From the NCBI GenBank assembly GCA_000004985.1, contig GG738867.1: a stretch of 64,000 nucleotides of DNA; one strand, given 5' to 3'. The DNA is from Naegleria gruberi (taxonomy: Eukaryota). The notes below the pieces were generated by a model. The model was not told the DNA's origin. It did not search any database and worked only from the letters and a program-made list of their open reading frames with translations. Positions 13,875-57,324 of the stretch are shown piece after piece. Position numbers and translations under genes: made by a program. Within the stretch, counting starts at the first letter, position 1. Each line of letters starts with the position of its first letter.

Positions 13875-13947
13875 GGGGATGTAGCTCACATGGTAGAGCG
13901 CTTCTTTAGCATGGAAGAGGTACGGGGATCGATACCCCGCATCTCCA
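13875..13947 (+). tRNA. tRNA-Ala (anticodon AGC)
   Basis: 73-nt cloverleaf GGGGATG/CATCTCC acceptor with the G3:U70 Ala identity pair.
Anticodon stem CTTCT/GGAAG, loop TTAGCAT.
T-arm CGGGG-ATCGATA-CCCCG. Confidence 0.85.
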
Positions 13948-17311: not shown

Positions 17312-20300
17312 ATATATTGGAGTATTAATTACTGGAGAGGATTGAACACTTTGAGTATTAATGTTTTGAGAAGTTGAAAAAATTGTTGATTTCTTTGGTT
17401 TGGCTGATGTGTGCTTTTTTGGTTGCTTTGATACTGGTTTTACAGTTGAAGTTGGAACGCAACGATGGACTGGCTTAGTTCCTCTTGGCTTTGGAGTTCT
17501 AACAGAGAGTAAATCAGAAGTTACTACATGTTTAACTGTTGGCTTTGGAGTTAAAGCAGGTATAACAGTTGGTTTTACAGAAACTGACTCAGATGGCTTT
17601 GTTGGATTGGTGGTAAGAACATTTTGGGAAGGTCTATTTCTTGGTCCATTGACTGGTTCTGAAATTGATTCAACTGTTGGCTTGATATATGAAATAACTG
17701 GTTTAACTGTTGACTTCGGAACTGTTGGAGTTGCTGTTGGCTTTGGAACTGAGCTACTATTTGGTTTTGGGTTTTACGCTAACTGGTTTAGTTGGTGTTG
17801 AATCAGGTTTAATTGAGTCAATGGTTTGCCCTCTGTTGGTTTAGAAACAGATTTAGGAGTCTTGATATCTGGAATAACTGGCTTATTGGTTGGTTTACCT
17901 GTTGGCTTTGAGGTTGCAGGTTTAATTGTTGGTTTTACAGAAGCTGACACAGATGGCTTGGTAACTACTGGTTTAACTTCAACAGGCTTTGGAGATTGGT
18001 TTAACTGTTGGCTTAACAACTACTGGTTTGACTGTTCCTCTTGGCTTTACATCTGTTTGTTTGATTGGATTTGCAGAGGAAACTGATGATACTGGCTTTG
18101 GGGTTGATACTGGTTTAACTTCAACAGGCTTTGGCTTTGAGATTGGCTTGACTGATGTGGGAGTGGAATCAGGTTTAGTTGTTGGCTTAACTGGTTTAGT
18201 TGACACAGGGTTGGTTGGGGCAGTTGTTGGTTTAGTAGAAGTTGGTTTTACAAAGCCATAAGATTTTGTTGGCTTTGTAACAAGTGTGAAATCTGCTGGG
18301 TTAGCCGATACACCATCTGTTGGTTTGACTGTTGGCTTAATAGATACTGGTTTCGTTGGTTTCATTGTTGGCTTAGTACCTGGTTTTTCAACTACAGTTG
18401 GTCTTTCACTATTGAGTAATTGAGTTGGCTTGTGTGCCGTTGGTTTTGGTGTTGGAACTGAGCTACTATTTGGTCTAGTAACAATTACTGGTTTAACTGG
18501 TTTTGGAGTTGCAGAATGTCTAACAGAGAGCAAATCAGAAGGCTTACTTGTTGGTTTAACTGTTGGCTTTGGAACTGTTGGAGTTGCTACAGGGTTAACT
18601 GTTGGTTTTACAGAAACTAACTCAGATAGCTTGGTAACAACTACTGGTTTAACTTCAACAGGTTTGGAGATTGGTTTAACTGTTGGCTTAACAACTGGTT
18701 TGACTGTTCCTCTTGGCTTTACAATGGAAACTGATGATACTGGTTTTGGAGTGGAAGCTGGTGGTTTTCCAACAGTTGGTTTAGTTGGTTTTACGCTAAC
18801 TGGTTTAGTTGGTGTTGAATCAGGTTTAATTGAAGTCAACTCTGTTGGTTTAGAAACAGATTTAGGAGTCTTGATATCTGGAATAACTGGCTTAACTCCG
18901 TTATTGGTTGGTTTAACTGTTGGCTTTGGTGTTGCAGGTTTAATTGTTGGTTTTACAGAAACTGACTCAGATGGCTTGGTAATAACTACTGGTTTGACTT
19001 CAACAGGCTTTGAGATTGGTTTAACTGTTGGCTTTGGAGTTGATACTTGTTTAACCTCAACAGGTTTTGGGCTAGAGGTGAAAGTAGCAACACTGACCGG
19101 TTTAGTTGTTGGCTTAACCGGTACAGGTTTTGTTAGTACTGGAGAAGGCTTTACATCTGGAACTACTGTTGGTGATTTAACTGGGTTTGATGGTTTAACT
19201 GTTGGTGTTGGAACAGGTTTAACAGAAACTGACCTGACAGTGAATGAGTTTGGTTTTGTAGTTGGTGATGAATTTGCTTTTGGTGGTTCAATCTTAACAA
19301 TGGCCTTATTATCAATAATTTTATCCAATGTAGATAGTAACTTATTGGTTGATAAGGTGTTCAAAGCACTGGCAACCTTCTTTTCACTTGCAGGTGTAAC
19401 ATCTTGCTTCTTTGCTTCTTGAACAGCGGCTTTAGAAACAATTTTAACTAAATCCTTCTTATCCATTTGTGAAATGGCTTCCTTGGCAACTTCCTTACTT
19501 GACACCTTTTCCATTTTCTGCAATTTAAGCATACTCTTGGCAAAACTTGAAGCATTATCTGGATTGATCAACGCATCCACGTAACATGACTTGAAATCGT
19601 TTGGATGATCCTTTTCAGAGATACCTGCCTTAGCACACGCTTTGCGAGCTTGTTCTTTTTCCTTTGAAGTTGCTTCTTTAAGTTCAGCATTAACACTTGA
19701 TGATTTGATCAAGGCAACCCTCTTCATTGGTTTGGCAAAGTAACTTTCCTTTGGAACACCCATGGTGGAGCTTACACAATAACCATAGTTGATATCAAGA
19801 GTTGCAGGAGCTTCAAAGGAAATATCGATATAATTACCTTGTTTGTAAACACTCCAACCATTCATATTAATAATTGCTCCAGAACTACTCTTAATTACAA
19901 TATTTGGACCAAATTTAAGAACATTATATGTAACTGAGGCACCCTTAGAAGTCAATGAAATTGTTTTTCCAGAAGGGATAGTTTGTTTTACACCATTAAT
20001 AAGAAAATATTGACCGTTAGCATGATATTCCAAAACTGATTCTTCATCGAGTGTCATTGCAATAGCAATATTACCAGAAACATGTCTTAATTTACCGGTA
20101 CGAGCTTGAGCCATGATGGACTTGTCAGCTGCTTCAGCCAAAACATATTCACCAATTGAATAGTAATCAAATGTTTTGCCTGTAAAAGTTCTCAAGTGAG
20201 GATCTCCTGTTGAATGACATTTCTATACCAATTCAAATAGTTTGATAATAATACATGTAATTGGGTGCCAACAACAAGAACACACATGAAAGATGATATA

Positions 20301-20492
20301 ACATGCAGATATAAACAATCTTCAATATTTCATAATACCTACATTAACAACAGCCCTAATGATGGCATTGGCATTGATAACAGCAGTAGGCTTGCTACGG
20401 CGACGAGCTTCAACCTCTGATGTAAGCATCATACTGAGCAATAGAAGCAACAGCAAGGATGCAACCATCAATTGAGAGTACTGTCTCTTCAT
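17312..20492 (-). CDS. secreted von Willebrand factor D (VWD)-domain mucin-like protein with Pro/Thr/Lys/Val-rich tandem repeats; 2 exons plus frame breaks inside the repeat array
   Basis: Exon 1 (20343..20492) encodes a signal peptide 'MKRQYSQLMVASLLLLLLLSMMLTSEVEA'.
A GTAGGT…TATAG intron (20223..20342, 120 nt) joins in frame to 'KCHSTGDPHLRTFTGKTFDYYSIGEY…', a VWD signature (GDPHxxTFDG).
A long PT/K-rich repeat region follows (…VKPTVKPISKPVEVKPVV…); the coding frame switches twice near 17979-18019 and near 17774.
The stop is at about 17312.
The + strand ORFs over 17400-19422 are antisense artefacts. Confidence 0.6.
17400..19300. repeat. tandem array of ~340-bp units (higher-order ~1-kb periodicity) encoding the PT-rich mucin repeats
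   Basis: Near-identical blocks, e.g. 'ttacgctaactggtttagttggtgttgaatcaggtttaattga' at 17774 and 18791.
'tggttttacagaa(a/g)ctga(c)(t/a)cagatggcttggta' recurs at about 17573, 17933, 18604 and 18951. Confidence 0.7.
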
Positions 20493-20793
20493 CGTTATTT
20501 TTTTAATAGATGAATTAAAGCGAAGCTGTAGTAACTCGCTAAATTTCAGCGCATGTGGAGCTATCTTATCCAGTACGCAAGGATTGTATTGTACGTGCAT
20601 TACCATTCTAATAAGACACAATGCTGTTCACAATACGACACTGTTTAAGGATTTTACAGCAAGATATTCCACAACAATTTTCCTTCCCTTAAACATTGAT
20701 AAAAATTGCTGAAAGTTCAGTTTGAATTTATAAGACATCATAAAATACACAAAAACAAGATCTTGTTGAAAATCTTAAAATCAAAAGTTCAGA

Positions 20794-20874
20794 CGCAGAC
20801 TGCAGGATTCGAACCTACGAAGGTTTCCCCAACAGATTTCAAGTCTGTCGCCTTAACCACTCGGCCAAGTCTGC
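20794..20874 (-). tRNA. tRNA-Ser (anticodon UGA), type II with long variable arm
   Basis: Reverse complement reads GCAGACTTGGCCGAGTGGTTAAGGCGACAGACTTGAAATCTGTTGGGGAAACCTTCGTAGGTTCGAATCCTGCAGTCTGCG.
Acceptor GCAGACT/AGTCTGC.
Anticodon stem ACAGA/TCTGT with loop CTTGAAA.
T-loop TTCGAAT. Confidence 0.85.
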
Positions 20875-22075
20875 TACGATTATTACAAAATCAATAGTTT
20901 CTAGCTCGGTATCTCAAATTGCTCTGTTCCACCTAGGTTCAACAAGTTTACTATATAATCTATATAATCGTGTGCACCTTTCATTTTGCTACCAATCCAA
21001 AGATGGATGCAGGCAATCAAAGCAGACTATTCCACCATTCTTTGAAAACAGCAAAATTCAAAATCTAAAGAATCTTCCTTAATTAATAAATACAATAAAT
21101 TATTAAAACAAGATGTTGTATAGCTTCTACACTTTGAAAGAAGAAGATCCAATAAGTAAGAATTGTTATATTGTTCTTAAAGAAGGCGTATTAACATTGC
21201 TACTGGTTCAACCTTGCTAAAACCACAATATATTAATATTTTCCAAGGCACTTCCGAGTTTACTAATACATCACTCATATCCAGTTATTTCCAAACAGTT
21301 CTTGTCCAGGGATTTTACGTTGTTATTGATCGTCACTGTGAAACACGTAATTGCTGATTGCGATCTGCCCTTTTCTACCCGTTTTCTTGCTTGCGAAAGA
21401 GTTTGAGAAAACAATTTTTGAACTCTGAAAGCACTTCAGAGCAATACTTAATAGAAATATTCAAAATACGATAACTAATTGTAATGAGAGTTTCAGAAAT
21501 TGAAAATCCGAAACAATACAAAGATAAAGAAGAATAACTCACTTTCTGAATCAAATCAAGTGCCAAGCTTGATATCCAAAATAATCCATTTTGTTAAGTT
21601 TGACCTTCTTGGCAAAGATCAATAAACCAGCTACTACCTCCAAGCATGATTACAAGAACTCTACACTAATAATAGCTTATAATCATCTACAGTTGTTCTT
21701 CCATCTCAGATACTTGGTTCTAAAACAACATGACATGAAATTCTCATCAACTACAGTCTGTCATCTTTGTAATCAATAGCAACAGTTCATTTTATCTTCC
21801 ACGTTTAGAACCACCATGCCATTTAACGAAAATACGAAACAGTTTTTTATTCCTTTCAGTAATGGCCTTATTTTGATTGTTATCCAAGCTTGATAGGTTG
21901 TTGCCAAAAACGCTTCGGTTATTAACATCCAAAATCTCACAGAACCTCCCAAATGGCAAAAGTTACCTCTACATGGATGTTTTCAACTTCACATTTTACC
22001 GTCAATCAAAGATATTTCACACTCGCTCATCCACTACGAGGTCACAAAAATTTATCAGAAAAAACAAAAACAAAT

Positions 22076-24239: not shown

Positions 24240-24358
24240 AGACTACAACACCACAGGTTCCCAAGTTGTCTCCAACCTCAGTACTGATGTGGCTCGACGA
24301 TGCTTAACTTCTCAAATCGGACGGGATGAGGTGCATTCATCGTGATATGGCCGTAGCC
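24240..24358 (-). rRNA. 5S rRNA gene (copy 1)
   Basis: Reverse complement 'GGCTACGGCCATATCACGATGAATGCACCTCATCCCGTCCGATTTGAGAAGTTAAGCATCGTCGAGCCACATCAGTACTGAGGTTGGAGACAACTTGGGAACCTGTGGTGTTGTAGTCT' (119 nt).
Conserved 5S blocks (GGCCATA…, GAAGTTAAGC, AGTACT, CTTGGGAA).
Helix I pairs GGCUACGGC with GUUGUAGUC.
Followed by a T-run pol III terminator. Confidence 0.85.
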
Positions 24359-27524: not shown

Positions 27525-30500
27525 TCAAGCCAATAATGGATCCACTGGTAGGCAAAATTTAAACATATCCTTATTTTTGTATTTCTTCAATCTAACTTTG
27601 ATATTAATCACCTTATTCAATTCTTGTTTTGGTGATTTGAGTAGTTTTTCATTTTCATAGGTTTCAATACCTTCAAGCCAGTCACGTAATTTAGGTGAGA
27701 ATATGCTTAACTCCATCAGATCAGTAATCTTATCCCAATCAAGATTAGAGTCGAGAGCAACAGCACCAATCAATGCCTCCATCACATCTGAAATAGATTT
27801 GGCTTTAAGTTTCAGATCTTTCTTTACAAACAACAGTTGATCAATTCTAAAGTCTTTGGCTATCTTTTCCAATGCTGTATTTCTTACAAAATTGGAACGG
27901 AACGTGTGCATTTCACTCTGGTCCAGATAAAAATTATGGAACATTGTTCGAGAAACATATAAATCCAAGACAGCATCGCCAACGAATTCCAGAGTTTCAT
28001 AATTCACATTAAAACCAATATCAACAGAGGGGTGAATTAATGTGTAGTATGCATATAGAATATTTTTGAATTTGTATCCAATAATTCGTTCCAATTCTTT
28101 AGCATTTTTCTCAATGTCTGGTATTGTGTTTTCAATGATACGCTTGACATATTCTGGATTTGAATTCAATATAAATTTGTCAGCAATAAAATTCTGCTTT
28201 TTGACCAGTTTCAAATCTCTAGCCAATTTTACACCTTCTTCAATACTGTGTTTACCAACGAGACCAATTAAACTTTCAATTATATCAGCACGTACTTTTT
28301 TGCCTTTCACAGAAGCTTCCTGTTCGCTTTTAGAGAAAGCAATACCAGCCACATTGTGATGATAGTACTGAGTTTCGATAAAGAAGTCCATAATAGATAA
28401 TTTTTGGGCCAACTTCCTCAAATTGGAGTTTGAAACTTTGGCAGTCTTTTCCTCATTATAAAATTTCATATTCTCGAATGGAAATCTCAGAACTATATCC
28501 AAAACAACAGCATATTTCAATATAGTATCACCAAAAAATTCGTATCTTTCATAGTTAGTATCCAGATTCTGACTAGTTCTGTGCGTTATTGCATTTCTTA
28601 ACTCTGACAAGTTAATATAACCACAACTTGGAAACATTTGATTTTTCAAATCGTGGGCTACAAGGGTCTGCTCTACTAAACTCATCAATGTTCCTTCATT
28701 GGACGTCTTAAATACTGCTCTTAGGGATTCGATAAAATCTATCCTTAAACTAGTTGGTTTGCAGAATTCTGGTATCAACATGACATATCTGTGGTACTTG
28801 AGAGAATATGCAGATAACATTGGTTGATTTGAATCACACATAATTTCATATCTATCCTTCAAATAGCTTTGGTAAGTTATAGTAGATCCTTGTTTCTCAA
28901 AAGATTCTAAGGGTGTAGAACTCTCATCAATATAATTTGGAGCATAAAAATCCTTATTATATGTGGTTACAATAAAATAATCGATCGGTACCCTCACTCC
29001 TAATCTCAAATGATCTAATATAGTCATTGACTGGGGATAATCTTTCTCACTCTGGGATAACTCTTTTTCGAATGTATATATCACATTCCAATCTATGACA
29101 TCCCTTGGTTGGTTTCCTCTACAAGAAGGAAGTACCAAGTAGAATCTTCCATCTCCATAAAAATAATCTTTAAGAGCATAATTATTGTAAATAATTCTAC
29201 ATAATCTCATGTAAAATGCAATCAATTTTTCATATTCAGACTTGGTTACTGTTATGAATCCACAAGGGAAAAGTTTCAGCCATAAAGGATGCATAGTCAC
29301 TTCAAACGGATATTGAATCTCTCCAAAAGTCAAAAGAGCAGTCATTTCTTCCTTTCCGTTGCTATTGATTATCATTTGACTAACAAATAATTTGACATTA
29401 TTGTTGTCTTTAGGCCCCTCATATCTAATTGGCTTTGGAATGTATGTATCTTTCTTCTCTATCTCTTCGTCATCTGAAAGATTCTCTATTGAAGAAATGA
29501 GTGGTTCAATATCCTCTTGTGTATCATTTGTAATAATAACCTTCTCAGATTTAATATATTCTTTTAGCTCCTCCAAGGCAGTATCTACAATGATGCTTCG
29601 CTCATTGTTACCCATATTGGTTAACATGATGATTTGGGAATAATCATCCTTATCATAAAGTACTACATATCTTGAAAGTTCGTGCCTCGCTCTACCCATA
29701 GACTGGATATGTTCTCTAGTTGTGTTGCAAATATCAAATTGAACCACTAAAGAGCATTTGGAAATGTTCAGACCCTCTTCTCCGGCTTTTGTAGCTACGA
29801 GAAGTCGAGTAGTGTGTGAAAATTCCTTCACTACAGTTGCTTGAGCTTGTCGAGACATAACTGAACTTCCTATCAACTCTTTACAATTTAGAGGTATAAA
29901 CTTTCTATACATTCTAAACATTTTTACAATTGCCTTTACATGAACAATTCGCTCAGCAAATATGATACATCTCATATTTTCGTTTGTATTTTCATATGTA
30001 TCGACTAAATCAAATAGAATTTTGACCTTATCTGAAATGAAAGGTGAAGAATTAATTTCATTCATACTTGAAAACTCAATTGGTTGATTCAAGTTAAAAA
30101 TTGGATAAAATGATTTGAAAGACTCAAAAACATCCAACTCACATATTAGTGAAATAATTATAAGACTTCCAATCAAACCTAATTCACGATAATTCTTCTC
30201 TATATCATCAACTGATATATCTCTAAAATTATGATATGAATGAAACGTTTTCAATGCATTCAATGGCTCTATCAACTCACTCTTAGATGAATAAGCTACG
30301 CTATGTTGTCTCGGGTTGTTGACATGTTTTTTCATCTCTTCCATGTAATCATAAGGTACTTTGATGGAAGCATCAAGGCTAAATTCTAATTTGGCCTTTC
30401 TCAAAAATAAGGTATGTTCATTAAGACTTGTCTTGTAGAGAGATTGAGAAGCCGGTGTCGCAGTAAGACCTAAAATTTTAGGAAGCTCAATTGGTTGTCT

Positions 30501-31211
30501 ATCTTTAAGGAAATTGAAATTATATGCTAATAGTGAAGGATCAATAGGCTTGTTGTTGTGATAATAATCTCTCATCAATTTAACATAGGGATGATCCTTA
30601 GTAGCATGGTGAGCCTCATCAAAAACCAATAACAAGATATCTTCAAAAGAAATTATTTGACTCTGAAGAGCATTCAACAATATTTGAGGAGTGCTCACAA
30701 TAACATTCCAAGATTTGCTCGAATCAATTGTAAAGTCCTTCTTAATTTTCATTTTGCTACATTCCCTTTTGTAGAAATATTTGAAAATAGCCTCCTGTTG
30801 TTGTTTCCTCAATGCAGTCGTTGGAACCAAGAAGAATATCTTCTTTGTTAGTTTCTTCTTATCAGGTGGTCCATTAGTTGGTGGTTTCTTCTGATCAGAA
30901 ATGCAACATGAACACTTTGAGGATAAAAAGTATTCATCTCCCATATATTCCTTTTTATCATTTTGATGTAATAATTGATCAATTAAAAGACAGGCTAGAA
31001 GTGTTTTTCCTGTACCTGTTGGTAGAATACAAATTGAGTTTCCATCGATTGATTCCCGAAGCAATTCCAATTGATAGGCTCTCGGTTTTTCAATGGTAAT
31101 AATTGTATTATTATTCGAATCATTAGTATTATCACCTGTTTGTGTCGACAGTGATGGTTGAGAAAGCATCGTTTTACTTGTTGAACAATTTTTAGGCTTT
31201 GAATAATGCAA
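27525..31211 (-). CDS. Dicer-like endoribonuclease (DExH helicase plus two RNase III domains)
   Basis: 1228-aa ATG ORF.
Walker A 'ILPTGTGKT'.
'VFDEAHHA' (DEAH).
Helicase C 'ATKAGEEGLNI'.
RNase III signatures 'ERYEFFGDTILKYAVV' and 'ETLEFVGDAVLDLYVS'. Confidence 0.8.
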   Translation of the reverse strand: MHYSKPKNCSTSKTMLSQPSLSTQTGDNTNDSNNNTIITIEKPRAYQLELLRESIDGNSICILPTGTGKTLLACLLIDQLLHQNDKKEYMGDEYFLSSKCSCCISDQKKPPTNGPPDKKKLTKKIFFLVPTTALRKQQQEAIFKYFYKRECSKMKIKKDFTIDSSKSWNVIVSTPQILLNALQSQIISFEDILLLVFDEAHHATKDHPYVKLMRDYYHNNKPIDPSLLAYNFNFLKDRQPIELPKILGLTATPASQSLYKTSLNEHTLFLRKAKLEFSLDASIKVPYDYMEEMKKHVNNPRQHSVAYSSKSELIEPLNALKTFHSYHNFRDISVDDIEKNYRELGLIGSLIIISLICELDVFESFKSFYPIFNLNQPIEFSSMNEINSSPFISDKVKILFDLVDTYENTNENMRCIIFAERIVHVKAIVKMFRMYRKFIPLNCKELIGSSVMSRQAQATVVKEFSHTTRLLVATKAGEEGLNISKCSLVVQFDICNTTREHIQSMGRARHELSRYVVLYDKDDYSQIIMLTNMGNNERSIIVDTALEELKEYIKSEKVIITNDTQEDIEPLISSIENLSDDEEIEKKDTYIPKPIRYEGPKDNNNVKLFVSQMIINSNGKEEMTALLTFGEIQYPFEVTMHPLWLKLFPCGFITVTKSEYEKLIAFYMRLCRIIYNNYALKDYFYGDGRFYLVLPSCRGNQPRDVIDWNVIYTFEKELSQSEKDYPQSMTILDHLRLGVRVPIDYFIVTTYNKDFYAPNYIDESSTPLESFEKQGSTITYQSYLKDRYEIMCDSNQPMLSAYSLKYHRYVMLIPEFCKPTSLRIDFIESLRAVFKTSNEGTLMSLVEQTLVAHDLKNQMFPSCGYINLSELRNAITHRTSQNLDTNYERYEFFGDTILKYAVVLDIVLRFPFENMKFYNEEKTAKVSNSNLRKLAQKLSIMDFFIETQYYHHNVAGIAFSKSEQEASVKGKKVRADIIESLIGLVGKHSIEEGVKLARDLKLVKKQNFIADKFILNSNPEYVKRIIENTIPDIEKNAKELERIIGYKFKNILYAYYTLIHPSVDIGFNVNYETLEFVGDAVLDLYVSRTMFHNFYLDQSEMHTFRSNFVRNTALEKIAKDFRIDQLLFVKKDLKLKAKSISDVMEALIGAVALDSNLDWDKITDLMELSIFSPKLRDWLEGIETYENEKLLKSPKQELNKVINIKVRLKKYKNKDMFKFCLPVDPLLA

Positions 31212-31405
31212 TTCTAATATTGTTGGCCAAGTGTTCGGAATAATTTAACATTTAACTCTTTCTACATTCAATATATTTAGAAATTATTTAACACAATTAA
31301 TTGGTGATTCATATTCGGGGAGTAGTTCTTCTCCCTGCAAGGTACAGCCTTCTTGTTTAACAACACAATTTTTAAAAAGAATTAAAAATCAAATTTTAAA
31401 TAAAA

Positions 31406-31834
31406 ATGCCACCAACAACAGTATTGGAACCACTTGATTTAATTAGACTATCATTGGATGAACAGGTTTATATTAAACTGAAGGGAGATCGTGAATTGCG
31501 AGGAACTTTACATGTAGGTGATCTTTTTTAAATATTTACAAATTTTTATTATTATCGGAATAATTATGATGACAATATAATTGCGATGACGATGATGGGT
31601 ATTAATAGGCTTACGATCAACATTTAAATATGGTCCTCGGAAATGTCGAAGAAACTATACATGAAATTGACATTGATAAGGAAACAAACGAACAACAAAT
31701 GAAGGTTTGTATTTCAAATCATTTCACATCAACAAATTTGATTTCTAAAGAGTACTACTCGTAAAATTGGAATGCTATTCTTGAGAGGAGATGGTGTGAT
31801 ATTAGTTGTCAATTCTGCTCTTCGTTCTCTTTAA
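31406..31834 (+). CDS. LSM3: U6 snRNA-associated Sm-like protein LSm3; 3 exons (31406-31513, 31609-31704, 31751-31834); not present in the ORF track
   Basis: Conceptual splice gives '[36 protein letters not shown]|[32 protein letters not shown]|[27 protein letters not shown]'.
This is near-colinear with LSm3 (…[45 protein letters not shown]…MLFVRGDGVVLV).
Introns are GTAGGT…AATAG (95 nt) and GTTTGT…TAAAG (46 nt). Confidence 0.8.
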
Positions 31835-32174
31835 ATATTCATGTAAAAACTCCAACATTTTCAACTAGTTCTGGATTGTGTATTATTATGAGGCCAGGCT
31901 GCAAATTCACAACATCAAAAAGGCTTGTTTTAACTTCCAGAAATTCTTGTTGTTTATTTTTGTTCAAACTTCACCTTCTTATTTTCATTATTTGACGTTG
32001 ACACGTTAAGAGATTTTTAAAAAAATTTTAATCGACTCATCCAGAACCTTCACGTGTCATCACAAAGCTCCATTTTCTTGGTGATACACAATTTGCGTCC
32101 TGACGACGTCAACGTTCCTATTGTCTTGAACTTATTAATAAACCAACAATAAGAATACAACAACCACAAACACC

Positions 32175-34659
32175 ATGGTTAATATATTCAGTAAGTGTGT
32201 GCTGCTTGATTTCAGTCCGTTTAACTTTTTATTCGAATATTACTTCATATCTACATTTTATCATCATCAAACTCTAAATTAATTATCTAATTCATCACCA
32301 CTCTCTTCATCATTCTAACAACACGTTATCACTCTCTATCCAATAACGATCTATTCTGTATTTTCATATCTATTTTTGTGGATTACACTTTGACTAACCA
32401 ACAACATTTTGATAACATAACTTTACCACAACATATTCAACAATAACAAAATCTTACCATTATCACTACGATAACCACTCACAACAATTCACTTCTAATA
32501 ATCATCATACCGTCTACTTCATATCATGTTCCATGTTCTCCACCAATTATAACCGTTTCATTCAACTTTCATCAACTTGTCAACGCTGCGAACAACTCCT
32601 TCATCATTTAATACCATTCTTCTAATCCTGTTGAATAATAATAATAATAATATTACTGCATAACCAACAACAAATCTAATTTATTTTCAATTGAAATATA
32701 ATAGAGAAGAAAAAGGTGTTTGGCTTACCACTCGAACAAGCTATTAAACAATCACCCATTCTCAATGGTTTACCATTTCCATTGACTAGATGTGTTGATG
32801 CTGTGGAAAGATATGCACTCCATGAAGAGGGTATTTATAGAAGAGCAGGTGCCAAGAATTCCATTGAAGCCTTAGTTAAAGCCTACGATACTGGAAAAGA
32901 TCCAGATCTACAAGCTCAAGACCCTTACACTGTTTGTTGTGTATTGAAGGAGTACTTGAAGAAATTACCAGAACCACTCACATCCTATGAATTATATAAT
33001 GATTTTATGGAGATTGGAAGAACTAGAAAGAACAAACCAAGAGAAGCTAGTGCAGATGAAATGAGACGATTGATAGAGAAATTACCAGAAAGTTGTCGAT
33101 ATGTCTTGTATTTTGTTATTAGACATTTACAAGCTGTTGCTCAACATCATGATGAGAACAAAATGAGTATTACTAACTTGTCAATTGTTTTTGGTCCTAA
33201 TTTGTTCCGTTCTCTAAATGACAGTCCAACTGCAATGCTTGGTGATGTTTCTCATCAAGGATATTGTGTCGATTTATTAATTAGAGAATCTGATACCGTG
33301 TTTGGATCAATTGCTGTTGATAATAAGAAGATTGCTGTTATGGATGATCCTCTTTCACAATTCACAGCTGCTCACTCTCCAGCTGCAGAAAAACCAAAAG
33401 CTGGTGATACTGATAATTCTCCTGGAAATAGATCTTCAAGAAGATTTGGTGGAGGACAAGATAAGAGAAAGGGTCTCTCACTCATTGAATTAAAATTGAA
33501 TGAAGACTCTCCTGCATCTGCTGGTAGAGGATTGTTTAGACCAGAGAGTACAAGAATTATTTTTAATGATGACAACAAATCAAAGCAAGTTACCTATTCT
33601 ACCGATGACATTACTCAATTAGTGAAAAATATTGTTAATGAAACTTTGGACGAATCTGCTCACAAGGCATTTAAGAGAACTTTGAATGATGGTTATTCCA
33701 TGTTGAGACCTCCTAAGAAGGCCTCATGGAAATCAGAAGAACCTGAGGATACATCAATTTATGCCACTAACAATAGTCAACGTAGATCATCTGCTGTTGA
33801 AGAATATACCAAAGACTTGGATCACGCTTCGGATGTAACCTCCCCTGCTGAAGATGATTCTTCCACACATGACACTAATTCGAATTCACACAAAGATATT
33901 GAGCCACTAACAGAAGAAACAATCAAAAAACTTGAATCACATCCAATAGATATTAACTCTCCAATTGAATCAATCAATGCAAGATTAACCATCAAAAGAG
34001 GTTACTACTCTCAAACAGTTTTCAAAGGTCTAGATACTACAAGGGTAGATGAGAAATGGAATGTAAACCAATTGTATCTAGAAAAAACAATTATCAGAGA
34101 GGAAATATATAATTTTGAAGAGGCCTACAAGAAAGCCAAACATTCTCAACCAACAAAAGAAGTTAAAGAGCACTTGAGGCCAATTTACCAACGATATTAC
34201 CAAGCTAGAGACCTTTATGAATTATTCGAATCTAAAAACAGATCATTCCTCTCACAAATGAGTATGGAATCACCTTTACATCAAGTTGCTGTTTTTAAAC
34301 GAAACAGTTATTCCCATAAGAATGGAAATAGATTAAGTAACAATCCGTATATGGACGGAAGAAGATCTATTTCATTCTCACTTAGAGGAAAATCATCACA
34401 AATTCAATCACCAGAATTTAAACAAATACTCCTTAAAAACCCAGATTATGCAGAGATGAGAAACAAAAAGCAACAACTGAAGAAATCCCTTTTAACATTT
34501 GAAAAACAATTCAAAGACACTCACAAACGAAAGATGAAATACAAGAGTGACTGGGGAGAAAACTCTCAACTCTTTGATGAGTATAAACTCATCCGAAGAA
34601 AAATGGTAGAGTTTGCCCTGAAACATTCAAGATCAAGAAATCACAATCATGATGAATAG
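32175..34659 (+). CDS. RhoGAP-domain protein; main exon 32705-34659, putative 16-nt first exon 32175-32190 (speculative)
   Basis: RhoGAP motifs 'VFGLPLEQA', 'GIYRRAGAKNSIEALVKAYDTG', 'VLKEYLKKLPEPL', 'NKMSITNLSIVFGPNLFRS'.
The track start is a GTG.
Candidate exon 1 'ATGGTTAATATATTCA|GTAAGT' splices in frame to …AATAG|AGAAGAAAAAGGTG…, giving MVNIFKKKKVFGLPL. Confidence 0.65.
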
Positions 34660-37294: not shown

Positions 37295-37368
37295 TGCCTC
37301 CCTTGGGAATCGAACCCAAGACCTCTGTCTTACTAGGACAGCGCTACTGCCAACTGAGCTAGGAAGGC
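37295..37368 (-). tRNA. tRNA-Thr (anticodon AGU)
   Basis: Reverse complement GCCTTCCTAGCTCAGTTGGCAGTAGCGCTGTCCTAGTAAGACAGAGGTCTTGGGTTCGATTCCCAAGGGAGGCA.
Anticodon stem CTGTC/GACAG with loop CTAGTAA.
T-loop TTCGATT.
A T-run terminator follows on the minus strand. Confidence 0.8.
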
Positions 37369-57205: not shown

Positions 57206-57324
57206 AGACTACAGCACCACAGGTTCCCAAGTTGTCTCCAACCTCAGTACTGATGTGGCTCGACGATGCTTAACTTCTCAAATCGGACGGGATGAGGTGT
57301 ATTCATCGTGATATGGCCGTAGCC
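57206..57324 (-). rRNA. 5S rRNA gene (copy 2)
   Basis: Near-identical to copy 1 (2 substitutions inside the gene).
The same conserved 5' flank lies at 57325-57362.
An A6/T6 terminator run lies immediately 3'. Confidence 0.85.

Follow-up and report, generated by a model that had tools for sequence, protein, structure and literature searches.

A three-exon LSm3 gene with two very old intron positions lies head-to-head with a Dicer-like gene in Naegleria gruberi

The window analysed here is the whole of a 64,000-nucleotide stretch of Naegleria gruberi contig GG738867.1 (assembly GCA_000004985.1). Within it, a short plus-strand gene of three exons is flanked by a Dicer-type gene in the opposite orientation (minus strand) and by a RhoGAP gene in the same orientation as its own (Table 1). 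This setting had been proposed from the sequence in the original prediction, and it is borne out by Pfam domains. The product of the Dicer-like gene carries ResIII/DEAD, Helicase_C and PAZ domains followed by two RNase III domains, which is the architecture of Dicer. Its open reading frame (ORF), when read from the first ATG, is exactly the public protein XP_002677410.1 / D2VEU9 (NAEGRDRAFT_48963). The RhoGAP domain (PF00620, E=1.4e-44) is encoded by an ORF at 32716-34659. By comparison with its counterpart in N. fowleri, whose first exon is ATGGTGTTTGAAGGCCTTTTTGGAC followed by GTAAGT (L001:9326), the RhoGAP gene probably has its start codon at ATG 32175; its first exon would be very small, ATGGTTAATATATTCA followed by GTAAGT, with an intron after it. 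The ORF, which is listed from a GTG at 32716, would therefore represent an internal exon, and the gap between the stop codon of the three-exon gene and the inferred RhoGAP ATG would be about 340 bp.

Table 1. Protein-coding genes, gene parts and RNA genes located in the window.
Feature	Position	Strand	Description
tRNA-Ala(AGC)	13875-13947	+	Rfam and ARAGORN
tRNA-Ser(TGA)	20794-20874	-	Rfam and ARAGORN
U4 spliceosomal snRNA	21298-21439	+	Rfam RF00015, 48.6 bits (gathering threshold 46), full-length model match
5S rRNA	24240-24358	-	103 bits
Dicer-like gene	27525-31169	-	1214 aa, single exon; divergent neighbour, upstream of LSm3
Intergenic region, head-to-head	31170-31405		236 bp, Dicer ATG to LSm3 ATG
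LSm3 exon 1	31406-31513	+	108 nt, aa 1-36; ATG 31406, in-frame TAA at 31397-31399
LSm3 intron 1	31514-31608	+	95 nt, GTAGGT...TAATAG, phase 0, 24% GC
LSm3 exon 2	31609-31704	+	96 nt, aa 37-68
LSm3 intron 2	31705-31750	+	46 nt, GTTTGT...CTAAAG, phase 0, 24% GC
LSm3 exon 3	31751-31834	+	84 nt, aa 69-95 and TAA stop; Sm2 motif
RhoGAP gene	32175-34659	+	tandem, downstream of LSm3; start 32175 inferred
tRNA-Thr(AGT)	37295-37368	-	Rfam and ARAGORN
5S rRNA	57206-57324	-	106 bits

The structure of the central gene was established by reading positions 30900-32400 of the window, joining the proposed exons by script and translating the result. The spliced coding sequence of 288 nt yields 95 amino acids and a TAA stop with no internal stop codon, and an in-frame TAA is located 9 nt 5' of the initiating ATG. 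Exon 1 encodes the N-terminus and the beginning of the Sm1 motif, up to ...RGTLH. Exon 2 supplies what remains of Sm1 together with the long variable hairpin, and exon 3 the Sm2 motif. Both introns are poorer in GC (24%) than the exons (33-36%) or the window overall (34%). The original prediction of this gene proved exact in its exon and intron coordinates, its lengths (exons of 108, 96 and 84 nt; introns of 95 and 46 nt) and its splice dinucleotides. It also stated correctly that no exon is long enough for the ORF track. Over the three exons, the mechanically called ORFs encode only 41, 44 and 20 aa, and the gene is missing from the ORF list, which by default takes ORFs of at least 60 aa, for this reason.

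To see whether the splice sites are more than a fortunate choice, all splice models with zero to two GT-AG introns that start at ATG 31406 were enumerated, and the products of the resulting 2116 models were scored against human LSm3. The three-exon model is the single best of the set with a score of 309. The runner-up reaches 255, which is 54 points lower, and the median score is 129. This ranking places the model far beyond chance. Alignment with the human protein proceeds without a gap over both junctions, so that shifting either splice site would create an indel. Identity to human LSm3 is maintained at 17 of 20 positions around junction 1 and at 12 of 20 around junction 2, and 24 of the 33 aligned positions in exon 1 are identical.

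Members of the Sm/LSm family, to which the original prediction had assigned the 95-aa product, are recognized by the Pfam LSM profile (PF01423). The product matches this profile with 74.2 bits (cut-off 23.4; E=6.5e-21), and the match spans residues 13-88 of the product and positions 3-65 of the 66 in the profile. A search of all PDB sequences with the product places LSm3 proteins of human, S. pombe and S. cerevisiae in the first eight ranks, each distinct sequence being counted once. The human match (E=1.3e-35, 124 bits) aligns residues 4-88 of the product with human residues 12-96 and is ungapped. The S. pombe (1.9e-27, 98 bits) and S. cerevisiae (about 1e-17, 67 bits) proteins follow. Archaeal SmAPs rank after LSm3 (about 1e-12, about 50 bits), and the nearest eukaryotic paralogue is SmD2 (4e-10, about 40-43 bits). 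This order, with LSm3 first and SmD2 as the next eukaryotic paralogue, fits the sister relationship of the LSm3 and SmD2 paralogues that Veretnik et al. (2009, PMC2650416) inferred.

The original prediction had described the spliced product as nearly colinear with LSm3, and the comparison with human LSM3 (U6 snRNA-associated Sm-like protein LSm3; PDB 3jcr chain 3, 6qw6) agrees with that description. The two proteins share 59 of 85 residues (69%) over Sm1, the long variable hairpin and Sm2. They differ in length, as the human protein has 102 aa and the N. gruberi protein has 95 aa with a shorter N-terminus. The C-terminal tails differ also. N. gruberi LSm3 ends in VVNSALRSL, whereas most orthologues carry a tail of the SPPLR type; the human version is APPLRVG.

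Residues that define the family are retained. In an alignment of 29 orthologues, the Sm1 residues H36-A-Y-D-x-H-L-N-M, which include D39, H41, L42, N43 and M44, are invariant, as are R80, G81 and D82 of Sm2. Five of these residues (D39, N43, R80, G81 and D82) are also identical to human LSm3. The motifs predicted to form the uridine pocket, D-x-x-x-N in Sm1 and R-G-D in Sm2, are intact.

In solved Sm proteins, an N-terminal helix precedes an antiparallel beta-sheet of five strands that is strongly bent. An AlphaFold model of the N. gruberi product, built from the 29-sequence alignment, has a mean pLDDT of 78.3. Its strands match those of the Sm fold, but residues 10-15 are drawn as a strand rather than as a helix. 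The best Foldseek matches are LSm3 chains of the human tri-snRNP (6qw6, 3jcr), which include the top fold match, of S. pombe Lsm2-8 (6ppn) and of yeast Lsm rings. SmD2 chains come next after LSm3. The top hits, LSm3 and SmD2 alike, have a probability of 1.00, TM 0.5-0.67 and an rmsd of 4-6 A. Because the model is of moderate quality and renders the N-terminal segment as a strand, it is taken to be consistent with LSm3 and not to constitute independent proof. Whatever the quality of the model, the 69% identity to an LSm3 protein of solved structure makes an Sm fold a near-certain prediction.

Further support for the gene model comes from N. fowleri, whose LSm3 protein was fitted to the DNA of its locus. 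This orthologue (FDP41_013090; P0002) is 88% identical to the N. gruberi product and has four more N-terminal residues. Its gene consists of exons of 120, 96 and 84 nt, so that exons 2 and 3 have the same lengths as in N. gruberi, and its two introns interrupt the coding sequence in the same phase at exactly the same codon boundaries. The introns themselves are 4-5 times longer, at 384 nt (GTATGT..AG) and 217 nt (GTAAGT..AG). Nucleotide identity between the two species is 82%, 77% and 68% in exons 1, 2 and 3, respectively, and 47 of the 68 exon differences are at third codon positions. At the codon level, 37 changes are synonymous and 13 are non-synonymous. Alignments between the introns of the two species are no better than those of shuffled controls, and no residual intron homology was detected by this comparison. 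This pattern of divergence is the mark of a protein-coding gene that is spliced and evolves under purifying selection.

The positions of the introns can be followed well beyond the genus. LSm3 proteins from the heterolobosean Acrasis kona, the coral Pocillopora verrucosa and the green alga Chlamydomonas incerta were fitted to their genomic loci. The gene models used for comparison are themselves predictions from annotation, but each fit has a single GT/GC-AG solution. Together with both Naegleria species, all five genomes, which represent three eukaryotic supergroups, contain two phase-0 introns at one identical pair of alignment columns, and the length of exon 2 is exactly 96 nt in every one of N. 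gruberi, N. fowleri, A. kona, P. verrucosa and C. incerta. Positions that are common to all five species imply that both introns of N. gruberi LSm3 occupy very old positions. LSm3 orthologues derived from transcriptomes (MMETSP) are colinear with the query over 96-99% of its length. Intron positions are known to be unusually conserved among orthologous Sm/Lsm genes (Veretnik et al. 2009, PMC2650416), and the five-species conservation observed here is in line with that study. The evolutionary point is a modest one: a discoban example is added to the great age already published for Sm/LSm intron positions (PMC2650416).

In A. kona, one and the same LSm3 protein is encoded on two different contigs (L002 6001-6367 and L003 6001-6367). 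EGF-like and RasGAP/RhoGAP genes are the neighbours of LSm3 on one contig, and an MCM gene is the neighbour on the other. This arrangement suggests either that the gene was duplicated recently or that the contigs are haplotypes of the assembly.

Sm proteins are short and sometimes difficult to assign, which raises the question of whether the N. gruberi gene might encode another member of the family, such as SmD2 or LSm5. Both of these proteins are matched in the PDB search with E values of 1e-8 to 1e-10, and SmD2, which shares the Sm fold and an extended beta3-beta4 hairpin with the product, is the next-best eukaryotic paralogue by both sequence and fold. SmD2 scores only about 40 bits, at 33-38% identity, compared with 124 bits and 69% for human LSm3, and LSm3 proteins of three species exceed every paralogue by 25-85 bits. 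The named homologues among the best 120 matches are essentially all LSm3, the human LSm3 alignment crosses the variable loop without a gap, and LSm3 genes of other lineages have their introns at the same positions. An assignment to a different paralogue is very improbable in the light of these comparisons. It is scarcely credible that the locus represents a non-functional relic, or a chance string of short ORFs that happens to resemble LSm3. Such an interpretation could draw on the fact that no exon is of ordinary ORF length. Against it stand an intact reading frame with canonical splice sites, the signature of purifying selection relative to N. fowleri at third codon positions, invariant signature residues, and the margin by which the splice model outscores every other alternative in the enumerated set. 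In addition, the 95-aa product is the sole N. gruberi protein among the best 120 homologue matches. On this sequence evidence all three readings were rejected: another Sm paralogue, a pseudogene and a chain of ORFs that arose by chance. It is almost certain that the plus-strand segment from 31406 to 31834 is the LSm3 gene of N. gruberi, apparently present in single copy, and that two ancient phase-0 introns are spliced from it to give a 95-aa protein with an Sm fold.

The gene had been described as unannotated in the original prediction. This is accurate for a track based on ORF length but not for GenBank, where a homologue search finds a product identical over its full length (100% identity; XP_002677313.1 / EFC44569.1, NAEGRDRAFT_33539, UniProt D2VEV0). 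The identity of the 95-aa products indicates that the same exon-intron model has already been deposited. Together with the exact match of the Dicer-like product, it identifies the window as nuclear DNA of N. gruberi. The public names of D2VEV0 are only 'predicted protein' and 'uncharacterized protein', and a literature search that combined Naegleria with LSm3 or with the locus tag found no paper. LSm3 is a known and universally conserved housekeeping gene for which the functional name is what is publicly missing, and NAEGRDRAFT_33539 / D2VEV0 can confidently be named LSm3. The case also illustrates how tracks based on ORF length overlook short multi-exon genes in a genome that is intron-poor but compact. 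Beyond housekeeping annotation the gene has little significance, and it gives no sign of a new mechanism.

The function of N. gruberi LSm3 can be proposed from its homologues. The primary transcript would be spliced at the two phase-0 introns to encode the 95-aa Sm-fold protein, which by homology would serve as one subunit of two heptameric rings, Lsm2-8 and Lsm1-7. In the nucleus, the Lsm2-8 ring would cap U6 snRNA at its 3' oligo-U end and promote assembly of U4/U6 and the tri-snRNP. In the cytoplasm, the Lsm1-7 ring would act with Pat1 to promote decapping and decay of deadenylated mRNAs. Each subunit of such a ring contacts one uridine via Sm1 loop-3 (D-x-x-x-N) and Sm2 loop-5 (R-G-D). We infer ring membership and U6 binding for the N. 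gruberi protein by analogy with these systems.

The head-to-head arrangement of LSm3 with the Dicer-like gene merits separate consideration. The original prediction gave a distance of 194 bp between the two genes, but this value was measured to a TTG at 31211, which is the ORF start under the bacterial code. With the Dicer ATG at 31169, the distance between start codons is 236 bp; head-to-head pairs with a bidirectional promoter are defined by start sites separated by less than 1 kb. The intergenic segment presumably holds the promoters of both genes, and transcription of Dicer and LSm3 probably begins at closely spaced or overlapping promoters within it. Shared or overlapping promoters are plausible from this geometry.

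The original prediction had Dicer and LSm3 share a compact divergent promoter region, but a noteworthy shared promoter is not supported. The spacing is ordinary for the window. ORFs of 150 aa or longer take up 77% of the sequence, and the median gap between them, estimated from the window itself, is 263 bp. Other divergent ORF pairs in the window are 70, 91, 390 and 509 bp apart. Nor is the intergenic sequence conserved with N. fowleri: alignment of the 236-bp N. gruberi region with its 335-bp N. fowleri counterpart yields only scattered AT-rich matches and no conserved block.

These observations bear on the possibility that the pairing is functional, with a shared bidirectional promoter that co-regulates an RNAi enzyme and an Lsm subunit. 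The close spacing of the start codons is compatible with such a promoter, and the head-to-head order is kept in N. fowleri despite the low nucleotide similarity of coding sequences between the two species (PMC4082629). The order that is kept, however, comprises the entire block of three genes, with Dicer-like (-), LSm3 (+) and RhoGAP (+) genes in the same succession, so that plain conserved synteny at the level of the genus explains the head-to-head arrangement. In A. kona the arrangement is absent, as no called gene with Dicer domains was found upstream of LSm3. Considering also that the spacing is close to the window median, that other divergent pairs are spaced equally or more tightly, and that the intergenic alignment lacks conserved blocks, a functional pairing appears unlikely, and no observation argues for a special coupling of the two genes. 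The stricter proposition that Dicer and LSm3 form a true bidirectional promoter unit, which couples expression of the RNAi nuclease to that of an Lsm ring subunit, is more doubtful still. If such a unit did exist, it would link small-RNA production to the capacity for U6 function and mRNA decay in Naegleria. The position of LSm3 opposite the Dicer-like gene reflects the high gene density of the genome together with genus-level synteny.

One element stands out in the otherwise AT-rich region between the two genes. This is a GC-rich, palindrome-like sequence of 19 nt, GGGGAGTAGTTCTTCTCCC, at 31317-31335. It occurs once in the window, against a chance expectation of 0.22, and the N. fowleri counterpart does not conserve it. 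A recurring promoter motif was considered and rejected on the basis of this single occurrence.

Several RNA genes are also located in the window. A U4 snRNA gene is found about 10 kb from LSm3, where it shares a large ORF-free gap (20114-21953) with tRNA-Ser. The proximity of the U4 gene to LSm3 is probably coincidental. The two 5S rRNA genes are dispersed rather than arranged in a tandem array, and lie 33 kb apart in short gaps between protein-coding ORFs. The tRNA-Ala gene takes up the greater part of the 239 bp that separate two long ORFs.
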